Source: Candidatus Bathyarchaeota archaeon (GTDB lineage: Archaea; Thermoproteota; Bathyarchaeia; Bathyarchaeales; Bathycorpusculaceae). From it: a stretch of 64,000 nt of DNA. A model generated the notes under the pieces. The model made no database searches. It saw nothing but the letters and a program-made list of their open reading frames with translations, and was not told the origin of the DNA. The stretch covers positions 1,632,001-1,696,000 of the forward strand of contig OY970176.1 in assembly GCA_963707955.1 (NCBI GenBank), given 5' to 3'. The translations under genes were made by a program, and so were the position numbers. Position 1 is the stretch's first letter. Each line of letters starts with the position of its first letter. Below, piece after piece: positions 13,957 to 55,105 of this stretch.

Positions 13957-14208
13957 CTTCTCACTAGTTGTTTACTCGTGCAGGAAGACCGTGCAACTCT
14001 ATGATTTTCCTCATTCCTGCGATCGTATTTGCAACAAGCCTCTTTAGGTCAAAGGTCTGCAAGGCCTAGCCTCTCAGGCTGTTAACTGCTTTGCGGTTTT
14101 ATGTTTTGCGCAGTGTGACGCCTTGGCAATTCCCAGCTAGATCTCTCATGATTTTAGACTGGCGCGCGCGGGCAGAAAGACATAATAGTTCTTTGAAGCC
14201 ACGGTATT

Positions 14209-14493
14209 GTGGAAACAATGAAAATAAACATTGACGTCCTAATGGTCATTCTTCTCGTGATCTTCGTGGGGAGCCTAGTCGGGCTTATAATCTATGGCGA
14301 GGTGTGGCGCATCAACCTCTCGATGACTGACACGCAGATTGAAAACTTCGATGCAGAACGCACGCGAAACGCTTTCATATTGTCAGCTGTTTGTATTGCA
14401 TCCGGGGGCTCCATGTTATATATACTTATTACAAGGTTCTCGCCGGAAAAAGAAAAGAAAAAGGTCTCTGCCTCCGGCGTCACCCATGAATGA
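14209..14493 (+). CDS. Small two-TM membrane protein
   Basis: Two hydrophobic stretches; bracketed by (GC)n motifs at 14162 and 14533. Confidence 0.6.
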   Translation: METMKINIDVLMVILLVIFVGSLVGLIIYGEVWRINLSMTDTQIENFDAERTRNAFILSAVCIASGGSMLYILITRFSPEKEKKKVSASGVTHE

Positions 14494-14635
14494 AGTATCG
14501 TGTTTCTGTTGAATTGCGGTCGCGCAAGGACCGCGCGCGCGACGGAGGGTTAGCAAGTGTCAAAAACAGCGTTTGACTTTGTGAAATTTTATATTCGTTG
14601 CATGTTATATCCTTAACATGTTTGGGGGAAGTGGC

Positions 14636-14788
14636 GTGAAACTTGTAACCGTATTATTGCCCGAAGCTTATTTGGAAGGTTTAGATGAGCTCGTGAGAGC
14701 TAATATGTATCCGAGCAGGAGTTCAGCTATACGGTCTTCGGTGAGGGATCTGCTGAAGAAAGAGCTTTGGGAAAGACGCGGAAGATGA
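14636..14788 (+). CDS. Ribbon-helix-helix (CopG/CdrS-like) regulator, 50 aa
   Basis: Manual translation MKLVTVLLPEAYLEGLDELVRANMYPSRSSAIRSSVRDLLKKELWERRGR; below ORF-track cutoff. Confidence 0.85.
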   Translation: MKLVTVLLPEAYLEGLDELVRANMYPSRSSAIRSSVRDLLKKELWERRGR

Positions 14789-15444
14789 AGCTTTGCAGTG
14801 GAAGGAAACTTCAATACACAATTCCACTGCCCGCAAGGCTCATCAGTTTTCTCAGAGGTAAGTCGGTAAAAACTGTCTTGGAACTCGGCTGTGGTTATGG
14901 CAGAGCCTGCTTTTTCTTACATGAGAACGGTCTTTGCGTCGCAGGCGTCGACTTAGACAAGGTGCAGGTCGGATTGGCTTTACAGGAAGCAAAATCGCGG
15001 AGGATTCACGATGGAATAGACTTTGTGGTCAACGATGCTGGAAATCTATGTTTCCCAGAATTCTCTTTTGACGCGGTCACGATGCTAGGAGTCCTCACTC
15101 TGGTTCCAAAAGCCGAAAGGCCGAGAATAATGAACGAAGTTGAAAGAGTCCTAAAACAGGTGGGCTACGTTTTCATCGAGGAGTTTGGCCGGACTTGGGA
15201 GAATCCGGTTTACAGGAAGAGATACAAGGAGGACTTGAAGGTCACCGGTGAATTGGGCACAGTCACAGTTAGGGATGACAATGGCAGGGTTCTGCATTTT
15301 GGGCATCACTTCACCCGCGGAGAGCTGCTCAGTCTTCTCAGAGGCTTCCAAATTGTCAGTTTCGAAAAAGACGTTTTCACAAGTTATTATCACAGAAACT
15401 GGGTCAAAGGAAACATCATACTGGCCCAGAAACAGCGAAGATAG
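14785..15444 (+). CDS. Class I SAM-dependent methyltransferase
   Basis: VLELGCGYGR, GVDLD, FDAV; ATGA overlap with the RHH gene. Confidence 0.85.
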   Translation: MKLCSGRKLQYTIPLPARLISFLRGKSVKTVLELGCGYGRACFFLHENGLCVAGVDLDKVQVGLALQEAKSRRIHDGIDFVVNDAGNLCFPEFSFDAVTMLGVLTLVPKAERPRIMNEVERVLKQVGYVFIEEFGRTWENPVYRKRYKEDLKVTGELGTVTVRDDNGRVLHFGHHFTRGELLSLLRGFQIVSFEKDVFTSYYHRNWVKGNIILAQKQRR

Positions 15445-15495
15445 GTTTTTTCCATCAAAATGGCTTTGCGTAAAGCTCTTCTTATTGAAGCGTCA

Positions 15496-16263
15496 TTAGC
15501 TAGGTTTTCCTAGGTCTCTCACTTTCTTGGCTGTTTCCGCAGGGTTTTCTGCGAGTGTTATCTCTCTTCCCACGATCAGATAGCGCGCGCCAGCCTCTAT
15601 GGCCGGTCGAACCGTTGCACCTTGAGCTCCTATTCCAGGCGAGTATATTGGAACCTTTTCTCCGAGTATTTCATGCACTTCTTTTATCTTCTCAGGGTAA
15701 GTCGCGCCCACAACTGCGCCGTCTGCGTCGTATTTCAGAGCTTTTTTTGCGAAGGATATGTACTGAAACGTTTTCGCGCCGCTTTCAGTTTCAATGATTG
15801 TTTGCCCGTAGCCTTCAGCTGCGGCTTTGTGACTCATGTAGACGAGGAGGATTACCCCGCGGCGCAGTCGGCGTGCAACATCAAAGATGGGTTTCAACCC
15901 TTCTTCCCATCCGGTGAATGGGTTGGCTATTAGGGCGTCGAAGCCCGCGGCATAGTAGTACTCAGCGATAACTTGGTTCGTGGCGCCGATGTCATTCGCC
16001 TTGCAGTCCATTATTGTCATCAATCCGGCATCGTGAGCCTTTCTGACAAGTTTTTCAACACCGTCAAACGTGCCCAGAGGAAGGACTAGGTGATGGTTGA
16101 ATTTGACAGCGCAAATGTAGGGATGAACAATGTCCAGAACGTGTTCTGCTTTGAGAAAGAGGGCCCTTCGGTTTTTTGGGTTTTCAAACGGAAAGTCAAA
16201 AGCCAAAACGATGTTAGATTCCTTTTCCCTTGCCTTCTTTTCCATCTTGACGCGGAAAGACAA
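15496..16263 (-). CDS. pyrF: Orotidine-5'-phosphate decarboxylase
   Basis: DCKANDIGAT, VVGAT, SPGIGAQG, IVGREI. Confidence 0.93.
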   Translation of the reverse strand: MSFRVKMEKKAREKESNIVLAFDFPFENPKNRRALFLKAEHVLDIVHPYICAVKFNHHLVLPLGTFDGVEKLVRKAHDAGLMTIMDCKANDIGATNQVIAEYYYAAGFDALIANPFTGWEEGLKPIFDVARRLRRGVILLVYMSHKAAAEGYGQTIIETESGAKTFQYISFAKKALKYDADGAVVGATYPEKIKEVHEILGEKVPIYSPGIGAQGATVRPAIEAGARYLIVGREITLAENPAETAKKVRDLGKPS

Positions 16264-16337
16264 ACTCAAACGCCTCTCTCTACTTGGTGATAAGACTAAA
16301 AACTCTTTTGCTTCCCACACTTGCCCAACTGCTATTC

Positions 16338-16931
16338 CTAGCTCATGTCTAAATCCTTCAGCGAAAGCTCTTGTTCTAGAGCTGACAGGAAAGCCATGGT
16401 TCTCGCGTGTCTTTCCTTCGCAATTCTCTTTGACGTGGGAGTGTTAAGTAGACCGTAGATGGGCTTCAATTCTTCAAAGCAGTTCTTCACAACGGTTTCA
16501 AATGGTCTCTTGCCTAACCAGTGGAATACTCTGGCAACGCCCGCCGCTCCTAACAGGTCGATTTTGTCCGCGTCCCAAACAATCTTCTCCTCCAGTGTTT
16601 CCAGCTTGTCTCTGAGAGGAAGCGCGTGATGTAACACTATCCTCGCGACTCTGTCACTCTTTTCACGAGGATAGTCTGTGCCGCTTAGAATCTCGCTTGC
16701 GAGTCTTGCTCCCGTTTCGTTGTGCGGTTCACCGACCGTTCGCCCTATATCGTGTAAGATGGCTCCTATCTGTACCAATTCGACATCTGCTTTCTCTCTC
16801 TCAGCCAGGAAAGTTGCGATTCTGAAGACGCGACCAACATGGGAGTAGGAGTGAACGGTCCCTTCCAGCGGAGCCATCTTCTCTTTAACGGTGATTATCA
16901 AGCGCTCTATCAATGGTCGCATGTCTATCAC
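16338..16931 (-). CDS. HD-domain phosphohydrolase
   Basis: HSYSHVGRV, LHDIGR, WDADKIDLLG. Confidence 0.9.
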   Translation of the reverse strand: MIDMRPLIERLIITVKEKMAPLEGTVHSYSHVGRVFRIATFLAEREKADVELVQIGAILHDIGRTVGEPHNETGARLASEILSGTDYPREKSDRVARIVLHHALPLRDKLETLEEKIVWDADKIDLLGAAGVARVFHWLGKRPFETVVKNCFEELKPIYGLLNTPTSKRIAKERHARTMAFLSALEQELSLKDLDMS

Positions 16932-17009
16932 GGCGATTTGTGGTGTGCTTTCTACACTAAATTTAAAAGTTAAACCTTATAAATCGTAGAGTGAGAAACC
17001 GCACACCTG

Positions 17010-17453
17010 GTGGCATGCATGAAACCTCAACCAGTGTTGAGCAATGAGCTTCGGAAACTCGTTGAATCTCGCATGAAGAGCAATCTAGAGGGGATAGAGC
17101 AAACGCTGCAACAGATATTTGGAGCACAGAAACTTGGCTTGGAAGAATTGAGGGAAACGATAAAGGGGCTTGAGGAGAGCTTTGACCTTCTGTCTCAGAA
17201 ATGGAACCTCCAGATCCTCTACATACTGTTTCTCAGAGAAACCACGGGGTTCGGCGAGCTGAAGAAGATTCTCAGGGCGAACTCTCGCACCTTATCGGAC
17301 AAACTTAAAATGCTCAACCAGAATGGATACATCAGAAGGTCAGTGGACGAGGGTCCTCCTCTGAGAGTAGGGTACTCGCTTACGACAAGAGGCCGCAATA
17401 CAGTTCTTCTCGCATTGCCTTTCCTATATTATTCTAGCAGTAACCTGACATGA
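17010..17453 (+). CDS. HxlR-family winged-helix regulator
   Basis: KWNLQIL, FGELKK, SRTLSDKLK, PPLRVGYSLT. Confidence 0.88.
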   Translation: MACMKPQPVLSNELRKLVESRMKSNLEGIEQTLQQIFGAQKLGLEELRETIKGLEESFDLLSQKWNLQILYILFLRETTGFGELKKILRANSRTLSDKLKMLNQNGYIRRSVDEGPPLRVGYSLTTRGRNTVLLALPFLYYSSSNLT

Positions 17454-17463
17454 GAAACAAGTT

Positions 17464-18159
17464 CTACACAGAACTGTTTTGGAACACTTTGATAGATTCG
17501 ATTTCCCCTCCTGAAGACTGTTTGATCAGTGACAATGCTGTAGCAACAGCCTCTCTCAGCCGGTTCTGCAATATCCCTGGAGCGCCATATCCGACCATGG
17601 TCGCGTTTTTTGTCTCCAATGTTATCTTCGTCTTGTCCGAATCACGGTAAGGATAGATGCACAAGACCTGTTTTCCATCTGCCAAAACAAGCATATTTTC
17701 CTTCAAGGAAATCGGTGCTTTCATGCCAATTCCAGTGAAGGCTTCACCGTTTCTGGCAAAACGAACTTGAAACGGTGGAGCTATGCAGTCACGGTCGAAT
17801 CCACTCATTGGAACCATCGTTTTCACAGATGCCAGATTGTAAGCGTCCACGACCGTGGACACGTTTGGAAGCTCGTCACCACACAAGACTCTTCGAATTA
17901 AGGCTTCACCAGCCGGCCTTGTCTTCGTTGGGTCGATGCCAAGCTTCCAATAGAAGTCCCGGTAGTCTCTCACAGTCGAGTCATCTTTCAGGTCCGCAAT
18001 GTTATATTTGCTTCTGACCTCTTCGTACAAGATTTTCTTGAGTTGCCGGAGCTGTTCGTTCTCTTTTCGTGCAGTAACGCCGTTGATGAGTCCGATGCAG
18101 ATCGCAAGTTGCGGTAACTTTTCAGAGACTTCAGGGCTCCAGTTGACGTCTATTTGCAT
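17464..18159 (-). CDS. B3/B4 (PheT-like) tRNA-editing domain protein
   Basis: YRDFYWKLGIDPTKTRPAGEALIRR, VDAYNLAS, YPYRDS. Confidence 0.88.
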   Translation of the reverse strand: MQIDVNWSPEVSEKLPQLAICIGLINGVTARKENEQLRQLKKILYEEVRSKYNIADLKDDSTVRDYRDFYWKLGIDPTKTRPAGEALIRRVLCGDELPNVSTVVDAYNLASVKTMVPMSGFDRDCIAPPFQVRFARNGEAFTGIGMKAPISLKENMLVLADGKQVLCIYPYRDSDKTKITLETKNATMVGYGAPGILQNRLREAVATALSLIKQSSGGEIESIKVFQNSSV

Positions 18160-18238
18160 TTTCGTGCACCATTCAGTTCTTATTTTGGCCTCTGCATACT
18201 TAATAGCCTCAAGCAGAATCTCAACCAAAGCCTAAAAA

Positions 18239-19132
18239 ATGATCGGTGAGCTTGCGGCGTTGGGCGCTGCTATCAGTTGGACAGTGTCAGCGTTATTCTA
18301 TGGAAAAGCGCTGCAACAGGCTAGGCCGATCTCCGCAAACATTATTCGTCTCACGTTAACAGGCTCGATTTTGCTCTTGTTCCTCGTTATTTTAGGCAAA
18401 CTTACATTTTTGACTGATTTACCTTCAGGAGTCGTTGTCATCTCAGCCGTCAGTGGCATAATTGGTCTAGGCTTAGGTGACACCTTGTATCTGGTGAGTC
18501 TGAGCCGAATAGGCGTCGCACGAGCCGTTCCGATAACCTGTGTTTATCCATTGTTTAGTCTTATATGGGCCTTTTTCCTCGAAGGTGAGCCGGTCACTTG
18601 GGCCGTTGTCCTCGGGGCCGTTGTCATAGTTGGCGGGATATGGTTTCTTGGCCAGGGCACCCATGCAGGCGAAGTTGATACAAAGAAGAAATCGTTGATC
18701 ATTGGCATGATCTTCGCCCTTCTAACTGCCATATTGTGGTCTATTAGTATTGCAATGATGGATATCGCAGTGAGAGAAACGCCGGACCTGGATCACGCTT
18801 TGGCCATCAACACGATGAGAGTGATCGCAATTGCGGCGTTTTTGTTCGCGGCTTCTCCTCTGCTCGATCGGAAACTGGGCTTTCTGAAGGTGCCGAAGAA
18901 AACCGTGATGGCCTTGGTTGCTGGGGGAATCGTCGCACTGGGTCTCGGATGGTTTTTTCTGGCGTACAGTTTCGTGCAGATTGCGCAGTCTCGGGCTGTT
19001 CCAATATCTTCAACGACCCCTCTCTTTTCGACGCTCGCCAGTGTTTTCCTGTTGCGTGAAAAAGTCACTGCCCGAACAGCTCTTGGATCGATAATGATCG
19101 TGGCTGGGATTTTCCTGGTCTTTCTGGCATAA
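18239..19132 (+). CDS. EamA/DMT family transporter
   Basis: About 10 TM helices in two EamA repeats. Confidence 0.9.
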   Translation: MIGELAALGAAISWTVSALFYGKALQQARPISANIIRLTLTGSILLLFLVILGKLTFLTDLPSGVVVISAVSGIIGLGLGDTLYLVSLSRIGVARAVPITCVYPLFSLIWAFFLEGEPVTWAVVLGAVVIVGGIWFLGQGTHAGEVDTKKKSLIIGMIFALLTAILWSISIAMMDIAVRETPDLDHALAINTMRVIAIAAFLFAASPLLDRKLGFLKVPKKTVMALVAGGIVALGLGWFFLAYSFVQIAQSRAVPISSTTPLFSTLASVFLLREKVTARTALGSIMIVAGIFLVFLA

Positions 19133-19220
19133 AACTGTTCTTTTCTCAAACCGTGTATAGCTTTTTATAGTGCGTGCCGTTCTAAGGGGGAACTTGGCGA
19201 ATTTGCAAGGTAGAGATTGA

Positions 19221-19994: not shown

Positions 19995-20026
19995 GAACCG
20001 TTTAGATTTTGACAACGTAAAATCTG

Positions 20027-20635: not shown

Positions 20636-20688
20636 GATGAGGCCATCTCGTATCCTCACTGTTCCATGAATCGGTCAGAGGCCATTGG

Positions 20689-20981: not shown

Positions 20982-21052
20982 GGCGAACACCTTTTAACTG
21001 CACACATAACATATCCACGCTTAAATAAGAATCGCTGGAGAAACACCTGCCA

Positions 21053-22088: not shown

Positions 22089-22257
22089 ATGCGAAGAAAC
22101 CGTGTTTTCCTGCTGTCCTCTTCAATCGTGCTTCTAGCTTTGGCCTTGACTTTTTCAAGCGCGCGCTGACAGGCTGCCCTGCGGTTGCAGCGTCTAATTC
22201 GAAGGTTACGGTGCATTTCATCGACGTTGGTTCGGGTGACTCAATTCTAGCGTGCGC
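22089..22257 (+). pseudogene. 5' remnant of a secreted ComEC/MBL-fold hydrolase
   Basis: Signal peptide then VTVHFIDVGSGDSIL; frame broken at GCGCGCGC 22159 and truncated at GCGTGCGC 22250. Confidence 0.7.
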
Positions 22258-22270
22258 TGGTCGAAACGAA

Positions 22271-28351: not shown

Positions 28352-28524
28352 TCTAGCGTACGCTAGGTTTTCTGTTTGGATCTAGAATATTTGAACCCGA
28401 ACGATGTCAGCAGTGGCTCTGTCGTTTAAGCCTTAGTTTATCTTCTATCGTCCTGCAGATTGAGGATTTCTGTTTTTGAGGCTTTTCGTGAATTTGTCCT
28501 TGTTGCGTTTCCTCTAGGTCCTGT

Positions 28525-29313: not shown

Positions 29314-29529
29314 TCTTAAACCCCAAATTCATCTTCTCTTATGTTGAACAGCGCAGCCGTTGGATTTTATCCTAAGCTTTAGTACATCATGTTTCAGAAG
29401 CTAGTACGGCTTCACACCCACGCGCGCGCTTCTCATGCGACATAGAACTGGAAATGGGAAGTTTCCATCATTCTTTTTAGGCTGGTTTCGTTGTGTACTG
29501 CAACAACTTCAGCGAATTGTGACCATTCC

Positions 29530-30030: not shown

Positions 30031-30089
30031 GGTTTAGAAGGTTCGCTGAAGAAGGAAAGAGGGTCTCAAATCCTTCAACAGGGCGCGCG

Positions 30090-30280
30090 CTGAGCAAGAT
30101 TGATGTCGAATACGGTCTTGATGATATGTTGAAGTTCAGAGACAACGTTTTCGTTCTTTTCTATGCTTCATGGTGTCCTTTTTCACAGAGGTTCTTGCCA
30201 AATTTCGAAAAGTTCGCTCAAGGCAAATCGCAGAGTTGTCTACGCGTTAAGACTGGCGATAAGGCAAGTCTGCGAGAAAG
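30090..30280 (+). pseudogene. Thioredoxin-like fragment
   Basis: FVLFYASWCPFS; cut at both ends by GCGCGCGC. Confidence 0.7.
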
Positions 30281-30389
30281 CGCGCGCGTTAAGGCTGACG
30301 TTGTCGATCGCTGCGCTGACTGCCAAGAATCCTGGTGCAATCACAGCTAGAATAACCGTGATCGTTGACAGTGCTTTCTTTAGGTTCAT
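30281..30389 (-). pseudogene. N-terminal signal-peptide fragment of a secreted protein
   Basis: AGGAGGTGA SD + MNLKKALSTITVILAVIAPGFLAVSAAIDNVSLN ending in the (GC)n motif. Confidence 0.6.
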
Positions 30390-31270: not shown

Positions 31271-31408
31271 CTACAACGACTTCGCGCGCGCTTCTTCTTT
31301 TCTCCTTACTTTTTCAACGTTACTCTTTCCATGTTTCCATTTTCCTCGGCTTTTCATTCTTTTCAAAAATCGTTCTCTTTTCGCCTGCTTCTTCTCAGAT
31401 CGTTTCAA
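31271..31408 (-). CDS. Small highly basic protein, copy 1 (45 aa)
   Basis: MKRSEKKQAKRERFLKRMKSRGKWKHGKSNVEKVRRKEEARAKSL; GGGAGG SD; conserved in copy 2. Confidence 0.65.
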   Translation of the reverse strand: MKRSEKKQAKRERFLKRMKSRGKWKHGKSNVEKVRRKEEARAKSL

Positions 31409-33087: not shown

Positions 33088-33161
33088 ATTCAAACGATAG
33101 GGCGCGCGCTAAAATCGTCTAGAGGAGCTGCCTCTAAATGTGCGTGAAAGGCTAGATTATG

Positions 33162-33290: not shown

Positions 33291-33909
33291 TCACTTCTTC
33301 CCCAAATCAGGATATCCTCTTGATTGGTTATATGTTTAACCGAAGGTGAAGGCTACCTCTTCGTGCACAAAGCGGGCGCTTTGCTCAATTAACTTTGATT
33401 GATCGACCAATGTCTGGTGAAATGGAAAAGATACGGAAGAAGCTTGATGGATTTGAAGAGGAAATGACACGCGCGCGTCACTTCTGGTGGACTGAGATCT
33501 TCCGCATCAGCTTCCTGAACAGGGAATACTACTACAAAGGGAGATTGAATCTTGTACCTTGTGTCACTAATGTGCGCTTAAATCTTAGCGCTGACAATTT
33601 CAACTCAATGAAGCAAACAAGAAAACCTGGGCGACCACGGGAATGGGTCTTGAACGAAGAAACCATTGAAATTAAAGGAAATAGAGTATCTAGTTTGGAG
33701 AAGGTTGAAGAGAACTCGGCAATCCAATTTCGTTGTTCGGGAGATATCTCCACTTGCCTGTTTTCTGGGCAACTTGCAAAGTCAATGAAGAAGATGCTAT
33801 TGGTGAGAGGACGCCAGTCCCAAGAGAAAGTCCTAAAATAGCAAGATAACATTAGAAATGAGACTTAGATTGGCCGTCTGCCTAGTTGGATAAATGCGGC
33901 GTTGTCAAT

Positions 33910-38894: not shown

Positions 38895-39182
38895 GTCTCG
38901 TAGTGCTCCTCATCACTGAAATAACGTGGAATGGACATGTTAAAAGTTTATTCACTCTGCGAGTGAGATATCCCCGCAAAACCCCTTTTTTTCTCTTATT
39001 CATGCATCCAGCGCACGCTTTTTGGCTTTGAGATAAAACTTTACCCCCAAACCCAAACACTAATTAGCCTTTCAAGAAGCACAGGCACTGACAGATATTT
39101 GCCAATGTAACTGATCCCCCTTAGTGCATGAAGTAACAGTAGTGGTAATGTTGCGGGGTAACACACACACACATGACGGCAG

Positions 39183-39429: not shown

Positions 39430-39437
39430 GCGCGCGC

Positions 39438-40544
39438 CAGCTTGTTGCAAAATTATTGAAGTTGACATGTTGCTGTTTAAGCTTGTTTGAGCTTGAATAG
39501 TTAGGGTGAAGGATGGAGAAACCTGAATTTTCATGTGCCATCCTGTCAAAACTGAACCTTTTCGACATCGAGCAAGTCGTCAACGGAGCCTACCACAGAA
39601 AAGATAGTCCGGGAAGGCCGCCCAGAAAGCCGATGGGCATCTTCAAAGCGTTAATCGTTAAACGGCTTCAGCAGATTCCCAGCGAGAGGGAACTCTGCAA
39701 ACGGTTGTGGCAGGACGATAACTTGAGGGAACTCTGTGACTTAGAGGCTGAGCAGAGGCCGTATCATCCTTCGCAGCTGTCGCGATTCAAGAAGCGCATA
39801 GGAACCAGAAGACTTCAGCGCATCATGAACAAACTGCTCAAGGAATGTCTAGAGGCGGATTGATTAGCGGCGAAACCGTGGTTTTGGACGCTACGTTCGT
39901 CAAGGCTTACAGCAGGCGAGACCCGCACGATAACAGTCGTGGAAAGTCGGATCCCGAAGCCAGGGTCGGCAGGAACGGCAAAACCTACGAGCTCGGCTAC
40001 AAACTGCACATTGCGACAGACGTGAAGTCCGAAATGCCGATAGCGGTTATCCCGGCTTCAGCTAACGAGAACGAGAAGGAACATGCTCCAGCGCTCTTTC
40101 GCAAGGCTTGGAAGGCAACTGAGCAGCAGATGAAAACGTTTATCGCGGATTCGCAGTACTCCAGCAGAAAACTCAGAGAACAGCTTTCAGCATACGGCGT
40201 GAAGGCTGTAATTCCATATCCTGCAAACCAGAACAGGAAGGAGGCTGATGTGTTGCGGGTTGACAAGTATTTCAGGACTCATGGTCCAGTTGAGGAAAAG
40301 CAAGTTTACACGTTGAGAGGCGCCGTTGAACGGGTGAATTCACGGCAGAAGGAGCAGTCTCTGCCTCGAAAAGCACAGGGCCAGAGGACTCAAATGCATA
40401 ACTACACACGCATTGCTCTGCGTGATTGCCATGCTGGTAAATGCGGTTGTAGCGTTGAGGCTGAACATGCCGGAAAAAGCCAGAGATCACCATGCTAACA
40501 AGATAAACAGAAATTAACAAAGAAATCGATTTAGCAACAGGCTG
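39438..40544 (+). mobile_element. Insertion sequence, about 1.1 kb, DDE transposase (IS5/IS1182-like)
   Basis: Terminal inverted repeats CAGCTTGTTGCAAAAT and revcomp CAGCCTGTTGCTAAAT; GCGC on both flanks. Confidence 0.88.
39513..40506 (+). pseudogene. DDE transposase with 2-3 frameshifts (decay or sequence error)
   Basis: GRPP, SEREL, VLDAT, GYKLH, ADSQY, RGAVERVNSR. Confidence 0.85.
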
Positions 40545-40551
40545 GCGCTCT

Positions 40552-41735: not shown

Positions 41736-41859
41736 GTTTATCCCTTCGAGACTATTCAGTAAATAGTTATATATTTACAAATATTTAAGATTTACGCGCA
41801 GGGACGCGCGCGCATGAGCTGGTATGTAGAAGTGTGATGAGAACGAAACTAAGCTTGGA

Positions 41860-41904
41860 AAGTAAGCAAAATTGACACGAACAATTCGATTTAGCAACAC
41901 CCTA
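41860..41904 (+). mobile_element. Orphan right end of a related IS
   Basis: TCGATTTAGCAACACCCTA|GCGCGC aligns with TCGATTTAGCAACAGGCTG|GCGC at 40526-40548. Confidence 0.7.
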
Positions 41905-42080
41905 GCGCGCTTTATGAGCTGAACAGCTTTAGAATGTTCTCACAACGTGTTTACTGTGTTCTTGTTCTTAGGAATTATTCGGCGTTTGAACGCCCCCTTC
42001 GATTTCGTCAGGCCACTTTTCAATCATTCCGTTGTCTTTCATGTGTGTGTTTGGGCGCGCGCTTGCTAAGAGGGGAGCAA

Positions 42081-42260: not shown

Positions 42261-42495
42261 GATTTCGCCTTCCGTATAATGGCTATCTTCCAAGGATTTA
42301 ACAGGTTCTGCATTAGTCCACTAATACAAAACAATAGTTCTTGAGAAAGCGCGCGCGCTAAAACATAGGCGAATACACTTGGAAACAATGACTCCTCCTT
42401 GTTGTTCAACAAGCACGGATCAAGTCGGACATTAAGTGAGAAAGTAAATGGGGCTCTCAAAGAATATATGACAGAGCATGAAGATTAAAGAATAA

Positions 42496-42777: not shown

Positions 42778-42866
42778 AAAACTAGATCTACGTGGTGGAT
42801 TGAAACTTGTCATTCTTAGGTTAGCGCGCGCCGTAGCAGATGATAGAGTTTGAAGGAGGTGAAACG

Positions 42867-43743: not shown

Positions 43744-43842
43744 CTTGAAGCGCGTGCTTAATTTCAGGCACGTTTCGGGCAAAAAGTACGCCTGAAGCTT
43801 AAATATGGCTTAAATGATAAAGGGTTATGGTGAAAGAGTAAG

Positions 43843-44133
43843 ATGGTTGGGCCTCTGGTATCTTTGCCTGCAAAGTGGGAACAGTTTCTGAAGAATTTGG
43901 CCGACGATCATGACATCGATCTCAACGCCGTCATCAGTCAACTGTGTGAGTGGGCCTTTTCCGATCCTGAGGGCAAAGAACAGTTCAAGATTTGGTTAGA
44001 TGAGGCTTATCCTGCAGAAGGAGAAGCTGAAGAAGCTGAAGAAGAAGAAGAAGCTGTAGGAGAAGAAGCTTCCGCCGAAGAAGAAGAGAATGAAGAAGAA
44101 TCTGAAGAGGAATCCCACGAACACAGAGATTAA
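43843..44133 (+). CDS. Hypothetical protein, RHH-like N-terminus and Glu-rich tail
   Basis: TTAAATA promoter-like box, GGTGA SD. Confidence 0.6.
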   Translation: MVGPLVSLPAKWEQFLKNLADDHDIDLNAVISQLCEWAFSDPEGKEQFKIWLDEAYPAEGEAEEAEEEEEAVGEEASAEEEENEEESEEESHEHRD

Positions 44134-44193
44134 CTACGAGCGTACGCTGGCTGAATGACCGGTGCAAAATCAGAGAAAAAAGAAGTTGTGATT

Positions 44194-44511
44194 TCATTTG
44201 ACTTGTTTCAATAATTTCAGGCTTTCTTCGAGACTCATTGCTAGTTTGATTTCGCTGGTGTTCCAAGCCATCCATTTTACCATTTCTGGTTCCATTGAGA
44301 ATTTTTGCAGAGCGTCTGAGCTTGGAGCTTCATAGACCCAAATCAACAGATGTTCCGGAACTACAGTCCATGCTCCAATCCTCTTCACTCCATGTTTCTT
44401 CTCCAGTCCGCCCAATTTGGCAGGCAATTCTAGCGTCATTTTCTTCATTTTCTCATTGTTCAGCGGACAGTTCTCTGCGGAATGCCTGGAAACTATCAAA
44501 AATATTGGCAT
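44194..44511 (-). CDS. DUF3303/GYD-like small alpha-beta protein
   Basis: RHSAENCP, EHLLIWVYEAPS. Confidence 0.65.
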   Translation of the reverse strand: MPIFLIVSRHSAENCPLNNEKMKKMTLELPAKLGGLEKKHGVKRIGAWTVVPEHLLIWVYEAPSSDALQKFSMEPEMVKWMAWNTSEIKLAMSLEESLKLLKQVK

Positions 44512-46036: not shown

Positions 46037-46612
46037 GCTACTCCTAAAGCAAATGACGTTGCGATAAGTTGGTTAGCACGCCTTTCTTGCAATATGCATT
46101 CTCAGCCCAGCTTATAAGGATGAGAGGCTAAAAGTCGCTTTTTTGCATTCTCTTCAGTTTCTTCGCGCTTCTTCCGCGCGCTAGCGCGTTCCTAAATTCT
46201 TTTGGGAAGCAGCTTGTGCTGCTCATTTTGCTCATCAACCCTATTTGGGTCATATAGCATACCCGGGGGGGAGGGTGTGAGCACGCAAACACCCACTCGA
46301 ACCGCGATAGTAACCATCCCCCATCGGGAAACGCCATGCCTGCCTCTTCAACGGAATTTAGGAACAAGCATGCGCGCCATTTAATTACTGGGTCAACCTC
46401 ACAGAAGGAAGAGCGCAATGACGATGTCCACCCAATATTAGGAAGGCTGGGAAAGCAATAGCTACGATGCCTTGTTCTGCGGAGATAGACCTTAGAAGTA
46501 TCGCGAAAACGCTGGACTGGGCGTTCAGACTATGTCATGATTCCTTTGTCCAAGCGGAGAGAAACGGACTAGTAGAGAATAAACATGTTTCGTAAGCTGC
46601 GGACACCTTCAC

Positions 46613-48474: not shown

Positions 48475-48546
48475 TTGCTGTGAGAGCTTTCTAAATTAAC
48501 CAACATTTCCGAAACAAGTGAAATATGAAAAAGGAGTGAGAGGTCT

Positions 48547-49191: not shown

Positions 49192-49229
49192 GGCCTGCTT
49201 GCCAAAGAAGAGCAACTGAGGAATAGTCA

Positions 49230-49511: not shown

Positions 49512-49602
49512 GAGAAGTAAACCTATGGGAAAAGCAATCGATAGACAGAAGGGGCATCAGGCGAGAAGAGCTCGCGGCGGAAAGAAACAGAAGAGAAGAT
49601 AG
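49504..49602 (+). CDS. 32-aa very basic peptide
   Basis: GGAGGTGA SD; MSKRSKPMGKAIDRQKGHQARRARGGKKQKRR. Confidence 0.55.
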   Translation: MSKRSKPMGKAIDRQKGHQARRARGGKKQKRR

Positions 49603-49993
49603 GAAGTTAACTCTCATATCACTGAGATCAAAGCAACTATCCATTGCCTCGCACGGCCCACCCAACACTATTGTTGCAGTTGTTTTGCATTTAGTTTGCG
49701 CGCGCTTCTTGTTTCTGCTTTCAGGATTTCTTGAATATGGTTTTCTGAGCGACTTGCCTATAAATGAATAGATACGCAGAGATTAGGTTCGTCGTTATAT
49801 ATGCAATCACCGATGCTAATCCCAAATAGACAAACCGCGCGCGCAACACAGTAACAGGCCTTGGGTTTGGGTTTTGGGTTTTGGGATAAAACTTTACCGC
49901 TCCCCTAGCTTTTCCAGCGGTTTTTGGGGAAGGGTTCCTCGTGGCCGTGTTTGCGGGAAAAATGAAATAAGGAGGGATGCTGCTGGGGAGGTT

Positions 49994-50872
49994 ATGTCTG
50001 TGTTGATTCGGAGATTGGTTGAGTCTGATCGGGATGATGTTTTGGAGATTTCTAGGTATACTTGGGATGGGCATGATTATTTGGGAACGGTTTTTGATGA
50101 GTGGGTGAATGATCCGAAATGTGATTTTGTCGGTGTGGAGGTAGAGGGCCGGGTTGTGGCTGTGGGTAATTTACGGTTGATTGAGGGTGGATGGACTGGC
50201 TGGTTGGAAGGCTTGAGGGTGCATCCGGATTTTAGGCACAGAGGATATGCGAATGAAATCACTGCTTATTTGGTTGCAGAGGGTGAGCGGTTGGGTGTTG
50301 GGCGGTTTCGTTATACGACTAGTGATCGGAATGCTGAGTCATTGAAGATTGCTGCGAAAGCTGGGTTTTCAAGGATTCTTGAGTTGGCTGTGTTCTGGGC
50401 TACTGGGGTGAAAATGTTGCCTCCGATGCGAGTTCATTATGCTTTAGAAGAGGCGGGGCCTAGCGCGCTTTATGATTTGCTGAGAAACAATGTCGACATG
50501 GTTCCTAGTGGGGTCTTGGTTTATGATTGGAAGGCTTTGGAGTTCAGTCTGGAGAGTCTTGAAGAGATCGGGAAGGATCATCGTTTCTACGTTGGATTGA
50601 AGAATGGGAAGGTCGATTCGTTGTCTTTTTGTCATCTGAGACCCGACAGGAAGGATCAGCCGTGGTGGAGTTTCACAGTTTATGCCCATGATTCGGAGGG
50701 TGTTATGGGGCAGGTTTCGCATAGTTTGAGGATTGCTTTGGAGGGTGGTTTGAACACGGCTATGGTGACGCTTGAGAAGCGTTTCGAAGAAGTTGTGGGC
50801 GAGTTAGAGTTTGGGGCTGATGAGCAGGATACTTCTCATCTGGTTATGCTGGAGAAGAAGATTAAAACATAA
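49994..50872 (+). CDS. GNAT-family acetyltransferase
   Basis: WDGHDYL, WLEGLRVHPDFRHRGYA, NAESLKIAAKAGF; GGAGG SD. Confidence 0.88.
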   Translation: MSVLIRRLVESDRDDVLEISRYTWDGHDYLGTVFDEWVNDPKCDFVGVEVEGRVVAVGNLRLIEGGWTGWLEGLRVHPDFRHRGYANEITAYLVAEGERLGVGRFRYTTSDRNAESLKIAAKAGFSRILELAVFWATGVKMLPPMRVHYALEEAGPSALYDLLRNNVDMVPSGVLVYDWKALEFSLESLEEIGKDHRFYVGLKNGKVDSLSFCHLRPDRKDQPWWSFTVYAHDSEGVMGQVSHSLRIALEGGLNTAMVTLEKRFEEVVGELEFGADEQDTSHLVMLEKKIKT

Positions 50873-51378
50873 AGTTGACGAACGCTAGTCAAACCTTGGC
50901 AAACAATGTGTTCGCGTCTTATCCGTGATCTTGGCGGGCGTTTGTTAGCGCGCGCGCCAACCACCACCACTTTGCTTTGTGGCTACTCAAGGCTCCTACC
51001 TAAGGGACGGTAGACACTAAGGAGCGTGGAGTGGCTGGATAAAACTTCACTCTAACTAAACTTCTGAACTGATATTATTTGGGTTCATGAAGGTGCTTCT
51101 TTTCGTGCGGGCTATTCCCCTCATGAACTTTGAAACCTGTGGAACAATGTGCTGATTGACTTGGTGAACGGCCAATTCGTTCTCGACAATATACCAATGA
51201 TAGGGTTTCGGCAGTGTAATCACATAGGCGTTGAGGATAGAGCGCGCGCTTCATTTCTCTCACCAATTACTCCAAAGCCAGACAAATCCACTGATTATTT
51301 CTGACGCACTTTCGAAAACGAATATCTTTAACTGAGCAGAAAATCGGAGCGACTCTCCCAATTATATGGAATCGATAA

Positions 51379-51951
51379 TCAGGTGGAATTCGGCTTGGCA
51401 ATTATCTCTCTAATTGCGACGTCAAAAAGATTGTGTGAGGGAGCTGATTTGATTACGACGGCGGTATCGGCGCCCTTTCCCGAGCCCGCTATGGCTATAA
51501 CGTCTTTGCCCGTTGGGATTGCCCCCGCATCTGCAGCCATTGCGGTGATTTCGACGACCACCTTCATGCCTTGACCAAAAAGTCTCAGGGTCTGGGCAAC
51601 TATCCCTGCTGGGTACACGGTGTTAAATTTCGCTTGGATTGCCCTGTTTACGCCCGAAAAGGTGTGAGCAGCTGTTACTATTTTTCCTCCCTGTGCCTTG
51701 ATCTTCTCAGCAAGCACATCATCCAGTTCGTTGGTGCCAGGTTCCTTCATGGCTGCGACGTGAGACACGACCACAACGTTATAACCCCTAAACATATTGA
51801 TTGCCATCAGACCGGTCGTTCCCCGCGTACTGGCGACAACGATATCTCTTATGTTAAGTTCATCAGCCCTTTCCTTAGCGGCTCTAAGTGTCTCAGCCGA
51901 GTTAACCTCGCCGGGATCGTTGAAGTACAGAACAATTTTTTTAGTCGACAT
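51379..51951 (-). CDS. Stand-alone pyruvate-kinase C-terminal-like protein (COG1751-like)
   Basis: YFNDPGEVN, IVVASTRGTT, LRLFGQGMKVVVEI, GADTA. Confidence 0.85.
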   Translation of the reverse strand: MSTKKIVLYFNDPGEVNSAETLRAAKERADELNIRDIVVASTRGTTGLMAINMFRGYNVVVVSHVAAMKEPGTNELDDVLAEKIKAQGGKIVTAAHTFSGVNRAIQAKFNTVYPAGIVAQTLRLFGQGMKVVVEITAMAADAGAIPTGKDVIAIAGSGKGADTAVVIKSAPSHNLFDVAIREIIAKPNST

Positions 51952-52159
51952 TGAAATACCCTCGGCGCGCGCTAAATTACTGCGCTGATTCCCAGATAAG
52001 TTTTCTCTCGCATTCTTCGTCCACGACTAAGATTCGCAGTTTGTTAAGCTTGCCTAGCTATGAAGCGATTTATTCTCGTAACGACTCCTCCTATTCCCAT
52101 GTTTAATGTGTCGTAAGCGCGCGTTAGAGACCCCTGATGGCCCGTAGTGAATTCTGGCG

Positions 52160-52651
52160 TTAGAAGTGGCCTAGAACAAAATCCCTCAAACCATTATGGT
52201 TCATCAAAAAATCAATTATAATTCTCGTGGCTTTGACAATCTGCACATCGAGCAGCCGCGAGGTGCCCAGTGTAAATATGAAGGAGAATATGCCCAAGGG
52301 AATTTCTAGGATGAGGTTTAAGGAGCCAAAAATCAGCACGAAAACAAGCGTGAGCAGAGCACCAAGTATGCCCATGATGAATGAGCGCACGATGAAATAC
52401 AGCCTCTGATGCCACACAGAAAGCAGCAGTGCCTTTGCAAGAGCCTGTTTCCCGACGTTCCGTTCGGTTTCAGTAGGCGCTTCATTCACATGCTGCAGCA
52501 AAGTTTTGGCGTGACGCATATCTGTCAAATGCAGAATCTTTATCATTTCGTCGGACTCTGCAAGCTCTTTTGAGCTCTTGTTTTCGATTTCCGTCATGAT
52601 TTCTTGAGTCATTTCGTCGACTTTTTGGTCGCCGATTGAAGTGGAAGTCAT
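52160..52651 (-). CDS. Membrane protein (2 TM)
   Basis: Soluble N-terminus then two hydrophobic helices. Confidence 0.65.
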   Translation of the reverse strand: MTSTSIGDQKVDEMTQEIMTEIENKSSKELAESDEMIKILHLTDMRHAKTLLQHVNEAPTETERNVGKQALAKALLLSVWHQRLYFIVRSFIMGILGALLTLVFVLIFGSLNLILEIPLGIFSFIFTLGTSRLLDVQIVKATRIIIDFLMNHNGLRDFVLGHF

Positions 52652-52998
52652 ACACGAAACCAGCTGAGATCTTAGCTCTCTAGTTAATAACTTCTTTGAG
52701 TCTTGGCATGTTTTGATTCTGGGAAACGCGCAACTGCACACGCAAGAAGTAGTAGAACACAAAACAGCGCGCGCTGCTTCCACACTGGCGGGGCATTTGC
52801 AGTGTATTCTTGTCATACGATATACAAGTTGATTATCAAGCTACCGAGAACCCAACTCGTAAGCATGGCCACTACCATCGTCCCGAGGGCTGTCGCCCAA
52901 AATAACACTCTGCTTCGTGCGAATTATGACTCCGCCAACAAGCGCGCGCCTAGAAACGGTAAAATAGAGGAACTTTACATAGACGTAGCGCGCCCTAA

Positions 52999-53217
52999 AT
53001 GAATACTTTGCCTAGAAGACCAAAGGTCCTTGGTATTCTGTTGATCTTTTTACTGCTTGGCTCCTTTGTTCTCGGAGCTGCAGCAGAAGTTGCACCTAAA
53101 TACATTAGCCTCTTTTTACTGATTGCTTTTCTTGTTGTCATAGCATTTGGAATTGTTTTCTACTATAATAGCAAGCGTAAGCGCGCGCTAAATTGGATGT
53201 CACAAAACGAGACTTGA
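52999..53217 (+). CDS. Small two-TM protein, possibly a fragment
   Basis: Two TM helices; (GC)n motifs at 52988 and 53181. Confidence 0.5.
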   Translation: MNTLPRRPKVLGILLIFLLLGSFVLGAAAEVAPKYISLFLLIAFLVVIAFGIVFYYNSKRKRALNWMSQNET

Positions 53218-53285
53218 AGTCTTTGCTCATAATCTTAAAGCAGTCGAGCGCTGCATTTGGAAAATGGGTCACGCAAGCTATGAAG

Positions 53286-53585
53286 TCAAAGAGGGATTGG
53301 CATAGGTATGCCGTTTCTTGCTTCCTCAACTATCGGGAGCACTTGTTTCAGTTCCCTGAAGTACTTGAGTACCGTTATGCCTCTTTGAGTTATAGCAAAG
53401 ACTGTTCTACTTTTCCCCACATTTCTTTCTTCAACAAGATTCTGTTTGATTAGGAAGGCAAGATACTCTTTCAGAACGCTACAATTCACGTTTGCTTTAT
53501 ACATTATATGCGTTAGTTTCAAAGGTCCGCGATGAGCCAACACTTTGAGAATGTCAACGTACATCTCGAGTTTGGAACGTCTCAT
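53286..53585 (-). CDS. Winged-helix regulator (HTH_45-like)
   Basis: MRRSKLEMYVDILKVL, THIMYKANVN, ITQRG. Confidence 0.88.
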   Translation of the reverse strand: MRRSKLEMYVDILKVLAHRGPLKLTHIMYKANVNCSVLKEYLAFLIKQNLVEERNVGKSRTVFAITQRGITVLKYFRELKQVLPIVEEARNGIPMPIPL

Positions 53586-53998
53586 AATTCTGCCCTTCGC
53601 GTATGTGTCTTTCACCAGTTGGAACAAGGGGTATAAACCGTTTATGAATCAGAAACCATGGTTCATAATCACATATTGCCGCGCCAACAGAAGTTTTCGT
53701 CGCACCTCTGCAACATGTTTCTGTTCATATTGAACCTCTAGACAACCTGAACTTGGAATAGTTATCGCAAGTATGTATTTCGAAACCGTATTTTGACAGC
53801 GTGCACTGCGCGCGCTGCATCGCCATTTTTCGCTCCCTTAGAAACAAGTTCCAATCGTTTGTAAGACAGAAATGTATGATCCATGATGCGCGCGCTGATA
53901 GTAATTACGTCGGGAACGCGCTTGCTTCTATCTAGCACAAAACTTAAGAAAAGTATGTGATATATTGTGGAAATTGGCGAATGAGGAGGTGATTTTGG

Positions 53999-54244
53999 TT
54001 GGCTAAATTAAAGAAGCGTTCTGGGACTATGCAAGAGTTTGACAAAGCAAAGCTGAAAACCTCTATGAAGAAGGCTGGAGCCAAAGAAGAACACGCAACA
54101 AAAGTGGCGGATAAGGTGGCAGGCAAGGTAAAAGAAGGAACAAAAACTATAGAGATTAGGGAATGGTTAATAACAGAACTAAGGCCGTTGGATTCAAAAG
54201 CTACAGAGGCATACGTAAGTTACAAGAAACCGAAGAAGAAGTAG
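53999..54244 (+). CDS. Stand-alone ATP-cone domain protein
   Basis: KKRSGTMQEFDKAKLKTSMKKAG...TIEIRE; GGAGGTGA SD. Confidence 0.82.
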   Translation: MAKLKKRSGTMQEFDKAKLKTSMKKAGAKEEHATKVADKVAGKVKEGTKTIEIREWLITELRPLDSKATEAYVSYKKPKKK

Positions 54245-54484
54245 CGTGCGATCCTATGCTGGGTCGCATTCATTTTTAGCGCGTGCTCCTTTCCTCTTTC
54301 TTGTGAATAGTCTGAATTGTGTGTCGTTAGGTTGGGTCGTGGAACATTAGATTTATTAGTGCCATCGCGCGCGCCAGTTAAAGTGCGCTCTGGTCTGGCC
54401 GAGTGCAAGGTTGATTTCCCGATGGACAGAGTTTCTTGAAGAGGACCGCGAAAAGCTAAACGAGTTTGATGAATGCTTCAGGCT

Positions 54485-54612
54485 CACACTCACTCCGTGT
54501 GCGTGTGTGTGCGTGCGTGTGTAGGTGTAGGTATAGGAGTATAGGTAGGTGTAGGAGTAGGAGTGTGGGTGACCAGAGTGGCGTGCAGGTGCTCACAGAG
54601 TGGAGTGAGTGA
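54485..54612. repeat. Low-complexity GT / GTAG(G) microsatellite-like tract
   Basis: GTGTGCGTGTGT...GTAGGTGTAGGTATAGGAGTATAGG. Confidence 0.7.
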
Positions 54613-55105
54613 GCGCGCGCGCTACCGTAGGCAGTGGTTGGTTGGATAAAACTTTACCCCCGCGCGCGAGGGACAAATGCGCAAGCAGGTTCAGTGCAGG
54701 AAGGATGGAACCAGAAGAGGGCGTGATGGTCGCGGGCATTGAAAAGTCACCGCCCTTGTCGAGACCCTCCGCCAAGCCTTTCGCATAAACTCGGCTTCAG
54801 CCCCTTGCGAAGTCAGTAGGGCCTTCCCTAGCGCCCGCTTGCAGTACTAGTACCCTAGGGGGGAGGGGGAGGGTGGAATAGACGGGGCCAAAACGCGAAT
54901 ACAGGGATGTAGCGTTCAGGTTTGGCATCGCTCAATTGGTGGGAAGCAGGAATCACAGCCATTTTTATGGTTGAAACGATTTCAGGGGCTTCCCAAAGCA
55001 TCTGTCTTCTATGAACATTAGACTCTTCAACAGGGTCAGCGAAAGTTTTAATATACCATGCTCTTAGCTTCGTTTCTCCATCAGAATTGCCACGGGTGAA
55101 ATTGC

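Follow-up and report, generated by a model that had tools for sequence, protein, structure and literature searches.

A hyper-abundant GC palindrome in a Bathyarchaeota genome matches the joined termini of IS5-family elements and may be their remnant

Introduction

What is the short GC palindrome that punctuates the accessory DNA of a bathyarchaeal genome, and by what route did it arrive there? The question is raised by a stretch of 64,000 nucleotides from a Candidatus Bathyarchaeota archaeon (contig OY970176.1 of assembly GCA_963707955.1, positions 1,632,001 to 1,696,000), hereafter the window, whose positions are counted from its first letter. A first-pass annotation of this stretch listed 26 copies of the palindromic octamer GCGCGCGC, took it for an undescribed motif, likened it to the highly iterated palindrome (HIP1) of cyanobacteria or, alternatively, to the target of an insertion sequence (IS), and proposed that it partitions accessory DNA into gene-sized cassettes that are gained, lost and shuffled at the motif.

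In the genome that holds the window (G000, a single contig of 2,346,764 bp) the octamer does not stand on its own: judged by its letters, it is what the joined termini of a family of ISs and MITEs (miniature inverted-repeat transposable elements) would give. We observe elements that end in GC runs, sites at which element and palindrome are alleles, palindromes at positions that vary between strains, and neutral evolution of the motif. We tentatively read the solitary palindromes as short remnants, or scars, of IS5-family ISs and of their non-autonomous derivatives (MITEs and cargo elements), a reading that we hold with somewhat less than even confidence and that is weighed below against several others.

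Results

Abundance and form of the palindrome

All 26 positions listed earlier hold the motif, and one further copy lies at 61172, outside the interval considered at the time. In the window, GCGCGCGC has 30 overlapping matches that form 27 loci, whereas 100 dinucleotide-preserving shuffles averaged 1.02 and never exceeded 4. The whole genome has 464 overlapping matches, or 419 loci (approximately 198 copies per Mb), and on both strands together the octamer occurs 928 times where Markov models of orders 1, 2 and 3 expect 57, 52 and 68. The order-3 ratio of 13.6 is the highest of all ranked G000 8-mers, a ranking that took in those with at least 150 both-strand occurrences, which makes GCGCGCGC a hyper-abundant palindromic octamer. 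The shuffles and Markov models rule out dinucleotide bias as the cause of this excess; the earlier claim that the motif goes beyond chance is thus borne out, also by the k-mer enrichment that had been proposed as a check (928 versus 68 expected at order 3).

Maximal runs of alternating G and C peak at the octamer itself, with 231 runs being exactly GCGCGCGC, 92 and 94 being two 7-mers, 43 being the 10-mer, and none being longer than 11 nt. As such, the peak at this exact length rules out simple slippage as the origin. The base preceding the octamer is an A in 71% of the cases and the one before that a T in 40%, and no conserved flank of the G000 loci extends past three bases. The true repeat unit is (T)A-GCGCGCGC-T(A), with AGCGCGCGCT as its ten-letter form, and these flank counts replace the form TTAGCGCGCGCC that was given before. 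Counts of A-(GC)n-T are 73, 114, 22 and 0 for n = 3, 4, 5 and 6. Symmetric variants, GCGTACGC and AGTGCGCGCACT among them, are compatible with a head-to-head joining of two like termini. The flanking triplets of 20 palindromes are direct in 8, TTA..TAA in 11 and TAA..TTA in 1, which fits independent flanks, direct 3-bp repeats not being in excess. The ratio of one-mismatch to perfect copies, tried as a test of age, is similar in five genomes and is confounded by background.

Elements with GC-run ends

The window contains an IS whose transposase, at 39513-40498, was overlooked when it was stated that no integrase is visible there. Two overlapping open reading frames (ORFs) match PF05598 (DUF772; 39513-39863) and PF01609 (DDE_Tnp_1; 39845-40498, E 2.1e-19), and together make up a DDE transposase of the IS4/IS5 type. 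Including its flanking GC runs, the element reads GCGCGCGC-CAGCTTGTTGCAAAATT ... GATTTAGCAACAGGCTG-GCGC, and its ends (GCGCGC-CAGCTTGTTGC) are related to those of a family of approximately 25 MITEs of about 205 bp each. The constant ends of the latter are (C/T)A-GCGCGC-TAGCGTGTTCC / TAGCGTGTTCCTGAATTC ... GGAACAAGCAT / GAATTCAGGAACAAGCAT-GCGCGC-T(A). These MITEs share their inverted repeats with the window IS, so that autonomous and miniature copies have the same kind of terminal inverted repeat (TIR); they fold as hairpins, and an Rfam scan of the MITE gave no match. The motif is tied to an insertion sequence, in line with the alternative of an IS target that had been offered at first. Because the window IS is the only full copy in G000, it was rejected as the sole source of the palindromes.

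A genome-wide count of TIR-like sequences (at most 6 mismatches in 24 nt) yielded 86 matches in G000, among them 26 paired elements and 34 solo ends. Three of the paired elements are larger. One of 1750 bp (G000 1558994-1560765) encodes a 284-aa ORF and a 119-aa Cys-rich ORF, one of 870 bp (524434-525305) encodes a 134-aa cupin-like ORF, both with MITE-type inverted repeats and no transposase, and the third is a second IS with a broken transposase. TIR-like sequence adjoins 64 of 510 GC runs of 6 nt versus 5 of 455 runs of 8-11 nt, which sets the 8-mers apart as a separate, solitary class. Pairs of short GC runs were also considered as miniature inverted-repeat elements, and rejected, as the DNA between them is mostly non-palindromic.

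The flanks of the MITEs carry the same partial TA signature as those of the palindromes: among 20 MITEs of the related genome G001, TA is found on the left in 12 and on the right in 11; 6 have it on both sides, 11 on a single side, and 3 lack it. Furthermore, related IS copies in G003, G006, G009, G011, G105 and G111 have the GC tip even though their inner repeats differ, such as A-GCGCGC-CAG... and TA-GCGCGC-AGG... in G105, T-CGCGCGC(G)-... in G111, and TA-(C/G)CGCGC-AGGC at both ends in G011, a genome poor in the motif. The IS tips of G023, CGTGC...GCACG, form an inverted and not a direct repeat, which indicates that the terminal run belongs to the inverted repeat of the IS instead of being a target duplication.

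On a separate note, four positions of contig C7 of G004 (12089, 170657, 228128 and 258185) have a block of roughly 50-60 nt, CCTACCCCCCTCC...GGATCCAAATATG, which resembles the interior of the G000 MITEs; one of the copies in that genome lies between GCGCGCGCG and GCGCGCGC.

Element and palindrome as alleles

Two syntenic genomes of the same genus, G001 (94% identity) and G007 (92%), allow individual sites to be compared, over 288 kb of G001 and 790 kb of G007. At four sites with intact flanks, element and palindrome were found as alleles of each other. Position 14166 of the window has GCGCGCGCG in G000 and a 184-bp MITE in G007; A-GCGCGCGC-T in both G001 and G007 stands opposite the 1750-bp cargo element of G000, which is absent from both; a MITE at G000 1936369 corresponds to AACGCGCT in G007; and at a shared left junction G001 has a MITE and G000 has GCGCGCGCG. 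Between occupied and empty alleles, 2, 6 and 6 GC letters are lost, which amounts to no fixed duplication length. Moreover, G001 and G007 lack the MITE of G000 1976047-1976249, and as both empty sites are devoid of a GC run, this element brought its own runs along.

Contigs assembled from metagenomic runs provide a population view of those parts of the window that they cover. In runs X3 and X7, which stem from different studies, the window MITE at 46175-46377 is pared down to its two inverted repeats, and the contigs also show a 3.4-kb skip filled by AGCGCGTGCT.... Several population joints touch the motif or the ends of elements, but these are a minority of those listed. Three joints, among them 39056->49867 and 39057->54638, derive from another repeat, (TTTGGG)n-GATAAAACTTTACCCC-(CAAACC)n, which has 34 copies genome-wide and lies at 39032-39047, 49885-49900 and 54645-54660 in the window. 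Its G-rich and C-rich arms are complementary around an A/T-rich core, giving it the look of a promoter or hairpin module, and it sometimes abuts a GC palindrome. A depth spike of approximately 998 in run X3 at 43807-44340, a bin with a GAA-rich low-complexity stretch, probably comes from unrelated contigs.

Palindromes at indel junctions

The loci concentrate where relatives differ. Compared to G007, 84 intergenic loci divide into 55 that are unaligned, 18 within 15 nt of the end of an alignment block and 11 that are aligned, versus 41%, 5% and 54% of random spacer positions; for G001 the 34 loci divide into 20, 9 and 5, versus 37%, 5.5% and 57.5%. Locus density is 1.33 per kb in unaligned, strain-specific spacers versus 0.31 per kb in aligned ones, an approximately fourfold difference. 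In a set of 63 indels with one allele of at most 25 nt and the other of at least 40 nt, the short-allele junction (within 8 nt) carries an alternating GC run of at least 6 nt in 14 cases and of at least 8 nt in 8, where the rates in size-matched random spacer intervals are 3.0% and 1.2%. The motif is thus enriched 7-10 times at indel junctions in comparison to the two relatives. The proposal that breakpoints should coincide with the motif therefore holds, as does its enrichment in strain-variable DNA.

At least nine indels have a palindrome-based filler as their short allele and a gene-sized segment without motif at its ends as the long one. In G001, AGCGCGCGCT stands for 302 bp that are common to G000 and G007, and it is this sharing that marks the G001 allele as a derived deletion. 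Where G000 has a particular 1103 bp, G007 has GTCT-GCGCGCGC, and a 1402-bp gene of G001 is replaced in G000 by T-GCGCGCG-AGC and in G007 by T-GCGCGC-TAGC. The latter filler equals the first 10 nt of the MITE end and, like the pared-down MITE of runs X3 and X7, is an intermediate form. The most detailed case is a ComEC-like gene, an intact ORF of around 330 codons in G001 (contig C2, ~193950-194970). In G000, GCGCGCGCT replaces 7 nt near codon 24 and AGCGTGCGCTGGTC replaces 893 bp, and G007 shares the left junction with G000 and then resumes some 750 nt further on. The motif thus accounts for gene fragments that end exactly at GCGCGCGC.

Whole genes thus differ in presence between relatives, with the motif where the gene is missing, which agrees with the link to gene gain and loss that was originally made. 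The recombination system envisaged along with it, in which the palindrome is the crossover site of integron-like, site-specific recombination that moves gene cassettes, is a different matter. Gene-sized presence and absence, short fragments bracketed by two copies, and the existence of TIR-bounded elements with one or two genes would all suit such a system. However, the motif is rare at the ends of the long alleles (runs of at least 6 nt in 7 of 63 and of at least 8 nt in 2 of 63), palindromes arise inside genes without a pre-existing copy, no attC-like structure was seen, and 49 of the 63 indels have no GC run of at least 6 nt at the short-allele junction, just as most listed population joints lie off the motif. 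No recombinase was present among ten window ORFs scanned, a systematic search for recombinases not having been made. We consider a cassette system very improbable.

Other mobile DNA was met in the same comparison. Neither G001 nor G007 has a 1511-bp element of G000 (2007252-2008764) that shows a 9-bp duplication and inverted ends of the GGTACTGTTAAGTT type. A 6861-bp insert of G001 at G000 1587756 has ends of the same kind, and the palindrome is involved in neither case. Around G000 2015975, a 17-bp direct repeat, AGTCCGGGCGGGCCCAC, borders a segment of 3535 bp that G001 lacks; as the repeat looks like a tRNA gene's 3' end, the segment may be an integrated element.

Conservation and placement in the genome

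Where loci do align, 8 of 20 are identical in G007 versus 41.5% of control spacer 8-mers, and 5 of 12 in G001 versus 52.8%. The motif loci evolve like neutral spacer DNA, and purifying selection is not evident. With respect to genes, 322 of the 419 loci (77%) are intergenic, 83 are coding and 14 lie at gene edges, a split that is approximate as it depends on our own crude ORF picker (2519 ORFs, 84% of the genome), which probably over-calls ORFs in the accessory stretch. Loci are clumped, with a mean of 3.55 and a variance of 10.42 per 20-kb bin. Their density per kb is 0.79 in tandem, 1.13 in convergent and 0.80 in divergent spacers, and such similar values in all spacer types rule out that the motif marks promoters or terminators.

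Could the palindrome nonetheless be a functional site under selection, such as an operator, part of a terminator, or a Z-DNA element? Its intergenic position and palindromic form would be expected of one, and a role shared by all three spacer types would agree with the even density. However, random spacer 8-mers are conserved at least as well, the palindrome is scarce in conserved spacers and concentrated in strain-specific DNA, and its presence in every type of spacer speaks against a promoter or terminator. A selected function hence seems most unlikely.

The same data bear on the analogy to HIP1, according to which a cognate methyltransferase together with mismatch or short-patch repair would have raised the palindrome. 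The motif is the most over-represented octamer and palindromic, and some differences between genomes are C/T transitions. In opposition to this, 77% of the loci are intergenic, new copies are born through block replacement or deletion instead of point change, and conservation is neutral by the figures above. The methyltransferase search that had been recommended found no match to PF00145 (C5 methyltransferase) in G000 and one weak match to PF02384; the two best PF01555 (N4/N6 methyltransferase) genes, the only PF01555 matches that were profiled, occur in 1 of 10 other genomes of the genus, and neither of them is present in G001 or G007, two genomes that have the motif as well. We give a HIP-like origin little credence, and with it the analogy drawn at first.

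That consecutive copies bracket single genes, a central observation of the first-pass annotation, follows from the position of the motif in spacers and requires no cassette system. As for the genes so bracketed, the labels GNAT, PK_C, wHTH and ATP-cone were confirmed, the ORFs at 14209, 42081 and 42496 had no Pfam match, and the copy said to lie in pyrF is indeed within an orotidine monophosphate (OMP) decarboxylase ORF. All loci and related elements of the window are collected in Table 1.

Table 1. Palindromes, elements and element remnants of the window, with the state of the site in relatives or population contigs.
Feature	Positions	Strand	Remarks
Solitary palindrome GCGCGCGCG	14162-14170		G007 at the same site: 184-bp MITE flanked by GCGCGC and GCGCG
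Solitary run CGCGCGCGCG	14532-14541		Kept in G007; unrelated bases in G001
GCGCGCGC within pyrF (OMP decarboxylase ORF 15496-16320, minus strand)	15583-15590		Kept in G001 and G007
Palindrome at about codon 24 of ComEC-like gene	22159-22166		Stands for 7 nt of G001
Remnant (~82 bp) of ComEC-like metallo-beta-lactamase gene between two palindromes	22167-22248	+	
Degenerate palindrome filler AGCGTGCGCTGGTC	22249-22262		Stands for 893 bp of the G001 gene
Symmetric variant CTAGCGTACGCTAG at synteny break	28353-28366		G001: TTTGGCGCGCGCAAAA, then unrelated DNA
Solitary palindrome	29421-29429		
Solitary palindrome	30083-30090		Kept in G001
Solitary palindrome	30280-30288		Kept in G001
Solitary palindrome	31283-31291		
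Solitary palindrome at edge of G001 alignment block	33102-33109		
CGCGCGCG run	33470-33477		
IS5-family insertion sequence plus flanking GC runs	39430-40548	+	DUF772, DDE_Tnp_1
Solitary palindrome	41805-41813		
Solo diverged right end of the window IS type, ending ...TTTAGCAACACCCTA-GCGCGC	41877-41910	+	
Solitary palindrome	42055-42062		A run X5 contig joins 39054 directly to 42055
GCGCGCGCGC	42349-42358		Length differs within run X5
Solitary palindrome	42824-42831		Kept in G007
MITE, ends GCGCGC-TAGCGCGTTCCTAAATTC ... GAATTTAGGAACAAGCAT-GCGCGC, single long hairpin fold	46175-46377	+	
Solitary palindrome in 304-bp segment	49698-49705		G007 without the segment
Solitary palindrome in the same 304-bp segment as the 49698 copy	49836-49844		
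Solitary palindrome opening a G000-specific 3.8-kb stretch, 50905-54715 (12 loci)	50948-50957		
Solitary palindrome	51242-51249		
Solitary palindrome	51965-51972		
Solitary palindrome	52767-52774		
Solitary palindrome	52942-52949		
Solitary palindrome TAA-GCGCGCGC-TAA	53181-53188		
Solitary palindrome	53808-53815		
Solitary palindrome	53888-53895		
Solitary palindrome	54366-54374		
GCGCGCGCGC	54613-54622		
CGCGCGCG directly after a GATAAAACTTTACCCC repeat copy	54661-54668		
GCGCGCGC within 659-aa Fer4/FAD oxidoreductase ORF	61172-61179		Not kept in G007

Spread across the class

A screen of 301 genomes of the class shows AGCGCGCGCT to be abundant throughout the genus of G000 (g1; all 11 genomes, 7 to 114 copies), and to reach 30 to 40 copies in three other genera of the same family. 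High counts recur in the families f35 (131, 94, 65 and 42), f26 (119, 106, 63 and 44) and f36 (83), where backwards-pattern controls gave 0 to 5 for the counts listed. The favoured core differs by clade, being 8 nt in G000 and mostly 10 nt, as TA-(GC)5-TA, in G080. Samples of G004 and G009 contain palindromes with T or TA flanks. By comparison, the specific end pattern of the MITEs is common in G000, G001, G003 and G007 alone, and the window-type transposase was found in 5 of 10 other genomes of the genus.

Discussion

If the palindromes are remnants of IS5-type elements, how would they be made? The source would be the IS, the MITEs of about 200 bp and the few TIR-bounded carriers of one or two genes, all with ends of the form TA-GCGCGC...GCGCGC-TA. 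Such an element would land in a spacer or in a dispensable stretch of DNA or gene; prokaryotic MITEs are mainly intergenic according to the accessible part of PMC11602168. It would often provoke a deletion or rearrangement beside one of its ends, and would later be lost as the DNA between its two palindromic GC termini collapses, whether through hairpin-promoted slippage, microhomology joining or excision by the transposase. The residue would be TA + GCGC.GCGC + TA: with termini of 6 nt, the 8-nt core that is favoured would result from an overlap of 4 nt, and cores of 6 or 10 nt from overlaps of 6 or 2 nt, respectively. For the collapse itself, the 'nearly precise excision' of Tn10 offers a comparison. 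The palindrome would then decay like any spacer sequence, and single genes would come to be bracketed only because accessory-genome spacers are where the elements settle.

Several observations weigh against this remnant reading, and the first group concerns individual sites. Since G001 and G007 both have the short allele opposite the 1750-bp element, simple parsimony would favour insertion of that element into a pre-existing palindrome. A clean 10-nt gap was seen at none of approximately 19 aligned differing loci, the relative instead having an unrelated block or a deletion. New palindromes stand for anything between 7 nt and 1.4 kb of DNA, and as they are replacements, the model needs extra steps, namely an adjacent deletion followed by collapse. 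The GC runs at IS ends vary as well (8 and 4 in G000, 7 and 8 in G003), which fits a run derived from the target equally well. In G023, the palindrome that its IS termini would make, GTGCGCAC, shows no excess, at 4 copies versus 2 in the control, a count that is uninformative because this genome has only one IS copy.

The second group concerns distribution. The palindrome is spread clade-wide (11 of 11 genomes in g1, 5 of 5 in f35 and 9 of 10 in f26), a pattern that resembles inheritance more than sporadic infection. Cross-tabulated by hand over 299 genomes (G000 being left out of the 301, along with G135, whose backwards-pattern control was 14), a transposase match occurs in 9 of 26 palindrome-rich genomes (at least 10 copies and a low control) versus approximately 49 of approximately 273 others, a weak link, and in family f24 the transposase is present in 28 of 53 genomes without the palindrome. 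Conversely, the parent element was not found in every genome in which palindromes abound. G004 and G008, with 39 and 56 copies of AGCGCGCGCT, gave no match to the window transposase, PF01609, PF13586 or PF13359, and G080 and G089 of family f35, with 94 and 131 copies, gave no IS5- or IS630-type match. TIR-like flanks were limited to 2 weak ones in a 400-kb sample of G004 and 1 in a 340-kb sample of G009. Searches of palindrome-rich, transposase-negative genomes for REP-associated tyrosine transposases (RAYTs; REP, repetitive extragenic palindrome), IS630 and other IS5-like Pfam families likewise found none. It should be noted that these genomes are metagenome-assembled and that G080 has an N gap, so that repeats may be unassembled in them.

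Given such palindrome-rich genomes in which no transposase was found, an origin driven by the host, or in the target site, must still be reckoned with. Here the palindrome would arise independently of transposons, through a clade-specific host process, for example an end-joining or gap-filling route, that writes TA(GC)nTA at DNA joints; IS5-type elements would then merely exploit it, inserting into the palindrome because it mimics abutted ends, or duplicating part of it. This would account for a distribution that is consistent within clades and does not follow the transposase, and for a favoured core length that differs between clades (8 nt versus mostly 10 nt). It would also suit palindromes at deletion junctions whose long allele shows no trace of an element (302 bp, and 893 bp of an intact gene), the lack of clean insertions, and the A-GCGCGCGC-T that both G001 and G007 have opposite the 1750-bp element. 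Furthermore, an 8-nt target with duplication of its central 4 bp would produce the 6+6 runs at the MITE ends. On the other hand, no candidate enzyme for such a process was found, there being no C5 methyltransferase, no RAYT, and two tested methyltransferases that are strain-specific. The GC run is part of the inverted repeat in the G023 IS and is present at the IS ends of the motif-poor G011, a MITE with GC runs occupies a site that is run-free in two relatives, and the difference of 2, 6 and 6 nt between occupied and empty alleles corresponds to no constant duplication. All in all, we regard a host process as a serious but doubtful candidate. Its most far-reaching form, in which whole clades of the Bathyarchaeia seal breaks or remove DNA independently of transposases, writing TA(GC)4-5TA, with IS5-type ends copying or homing to the scar, we consider unlikely, and a shade more so.

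If the remnant reading is true, several hundred transposon visits, and the deletions that these brought about, can be counted from the palindromes, which would give a direct handle on the rate of accessory-genome turnover in an uncultured archaeal class and present a rare prokaryotic case of transposon scars outnumbering their elements. If a host process is responsible instead, the sequence-specific writing of joints in archaea would be new biology. Under either reading the motif is a practical marker, which within the genus flags the spacers and pseudogenes where relatives differ.

How does the palindrome relate to repeats that are already known? With HIP1 (GCGATCGC) of cyanobacteria it shares an octameric palindromic form, the rank of most over-represented 8-mer and a clade-wide spread. 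HIP1 reaches 300-2700 copies per Mb with observed/expected ratios of 55-228 in the accessible part of the paper by Elhai (PMC4390886), which deals with cyanobacteria only and in which the words 'archaea' and 'GCGCGC' do not appear; the G000 motif remains at approximately 198 copies per Mb and a ratio of 13.6. HIP is moreover conserved beyond neutral expectation, as stated in the accessible part of PMC5861425. Unlike HIP, the G000 motif shows no such conservation (8/20 versus 41.5% and 5/12 versus 52.8%); it is intergenic, neutral and located at indel junctions, and no matching methyltransferase was found in the searches described above.

REPs and the REPINs built from them are extragenic palindromes with hundreds of copies, specific to clades and associated with RAYT transposases. 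The G000 palindromes are likewise extragenic, number in the hundreds and are clade-specific. They differ in being perfect, only 10-14 nt long and without a loop, and the Y1 transposase PF01797 was not found in G000, G004, G080 or G089, only in G111, among the five genomes searched.

The footprints of Tc1/mariner elements and the remnants of Tn10 are a textbook comparison for the collapse suggested here. In these, too, a duplication, a few terminal letters from each end and a second duplication are left behind, and element and remnant exist as alleles. Nothing on excision scars is contained in the accessible part of PMC2170065. The palindromes depart from the footprint pattern in that no clean footprint allele occurs among the approximately 19 aligned differing loci, that flanking DNA is lost with most new copies, and that remnants abound in genomes in which the element was not found.

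IS5-family elements themselves are characterised by a DDE_Tnp_1 transposase, short inverted repeats and a duplication of 2-4 bp. What sets the present case apart is that the terminal 6 nt are themselves palindromic (GCGCGC), and that solitary remnants of 8-10 nt outnumber elements by more than 10:1 (approximately 419 loci versus approximately 26 paired elements). To our knowledge, such solitary remnants have not been described for IS5 elements, and a literature search, which did not cover supplementary files, found no paper on this palindrome or on IS5 remnants. In other respects the likeness is close: the window IS carries DUF772 and DDE_Tnp_1, and the MITEs have hairpin folds and the same inverted repeats as the IS. 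Part of the IS5 family uses short, TA-centred targets, and the TA flanks of the elements and palindromes described here fit that preference.

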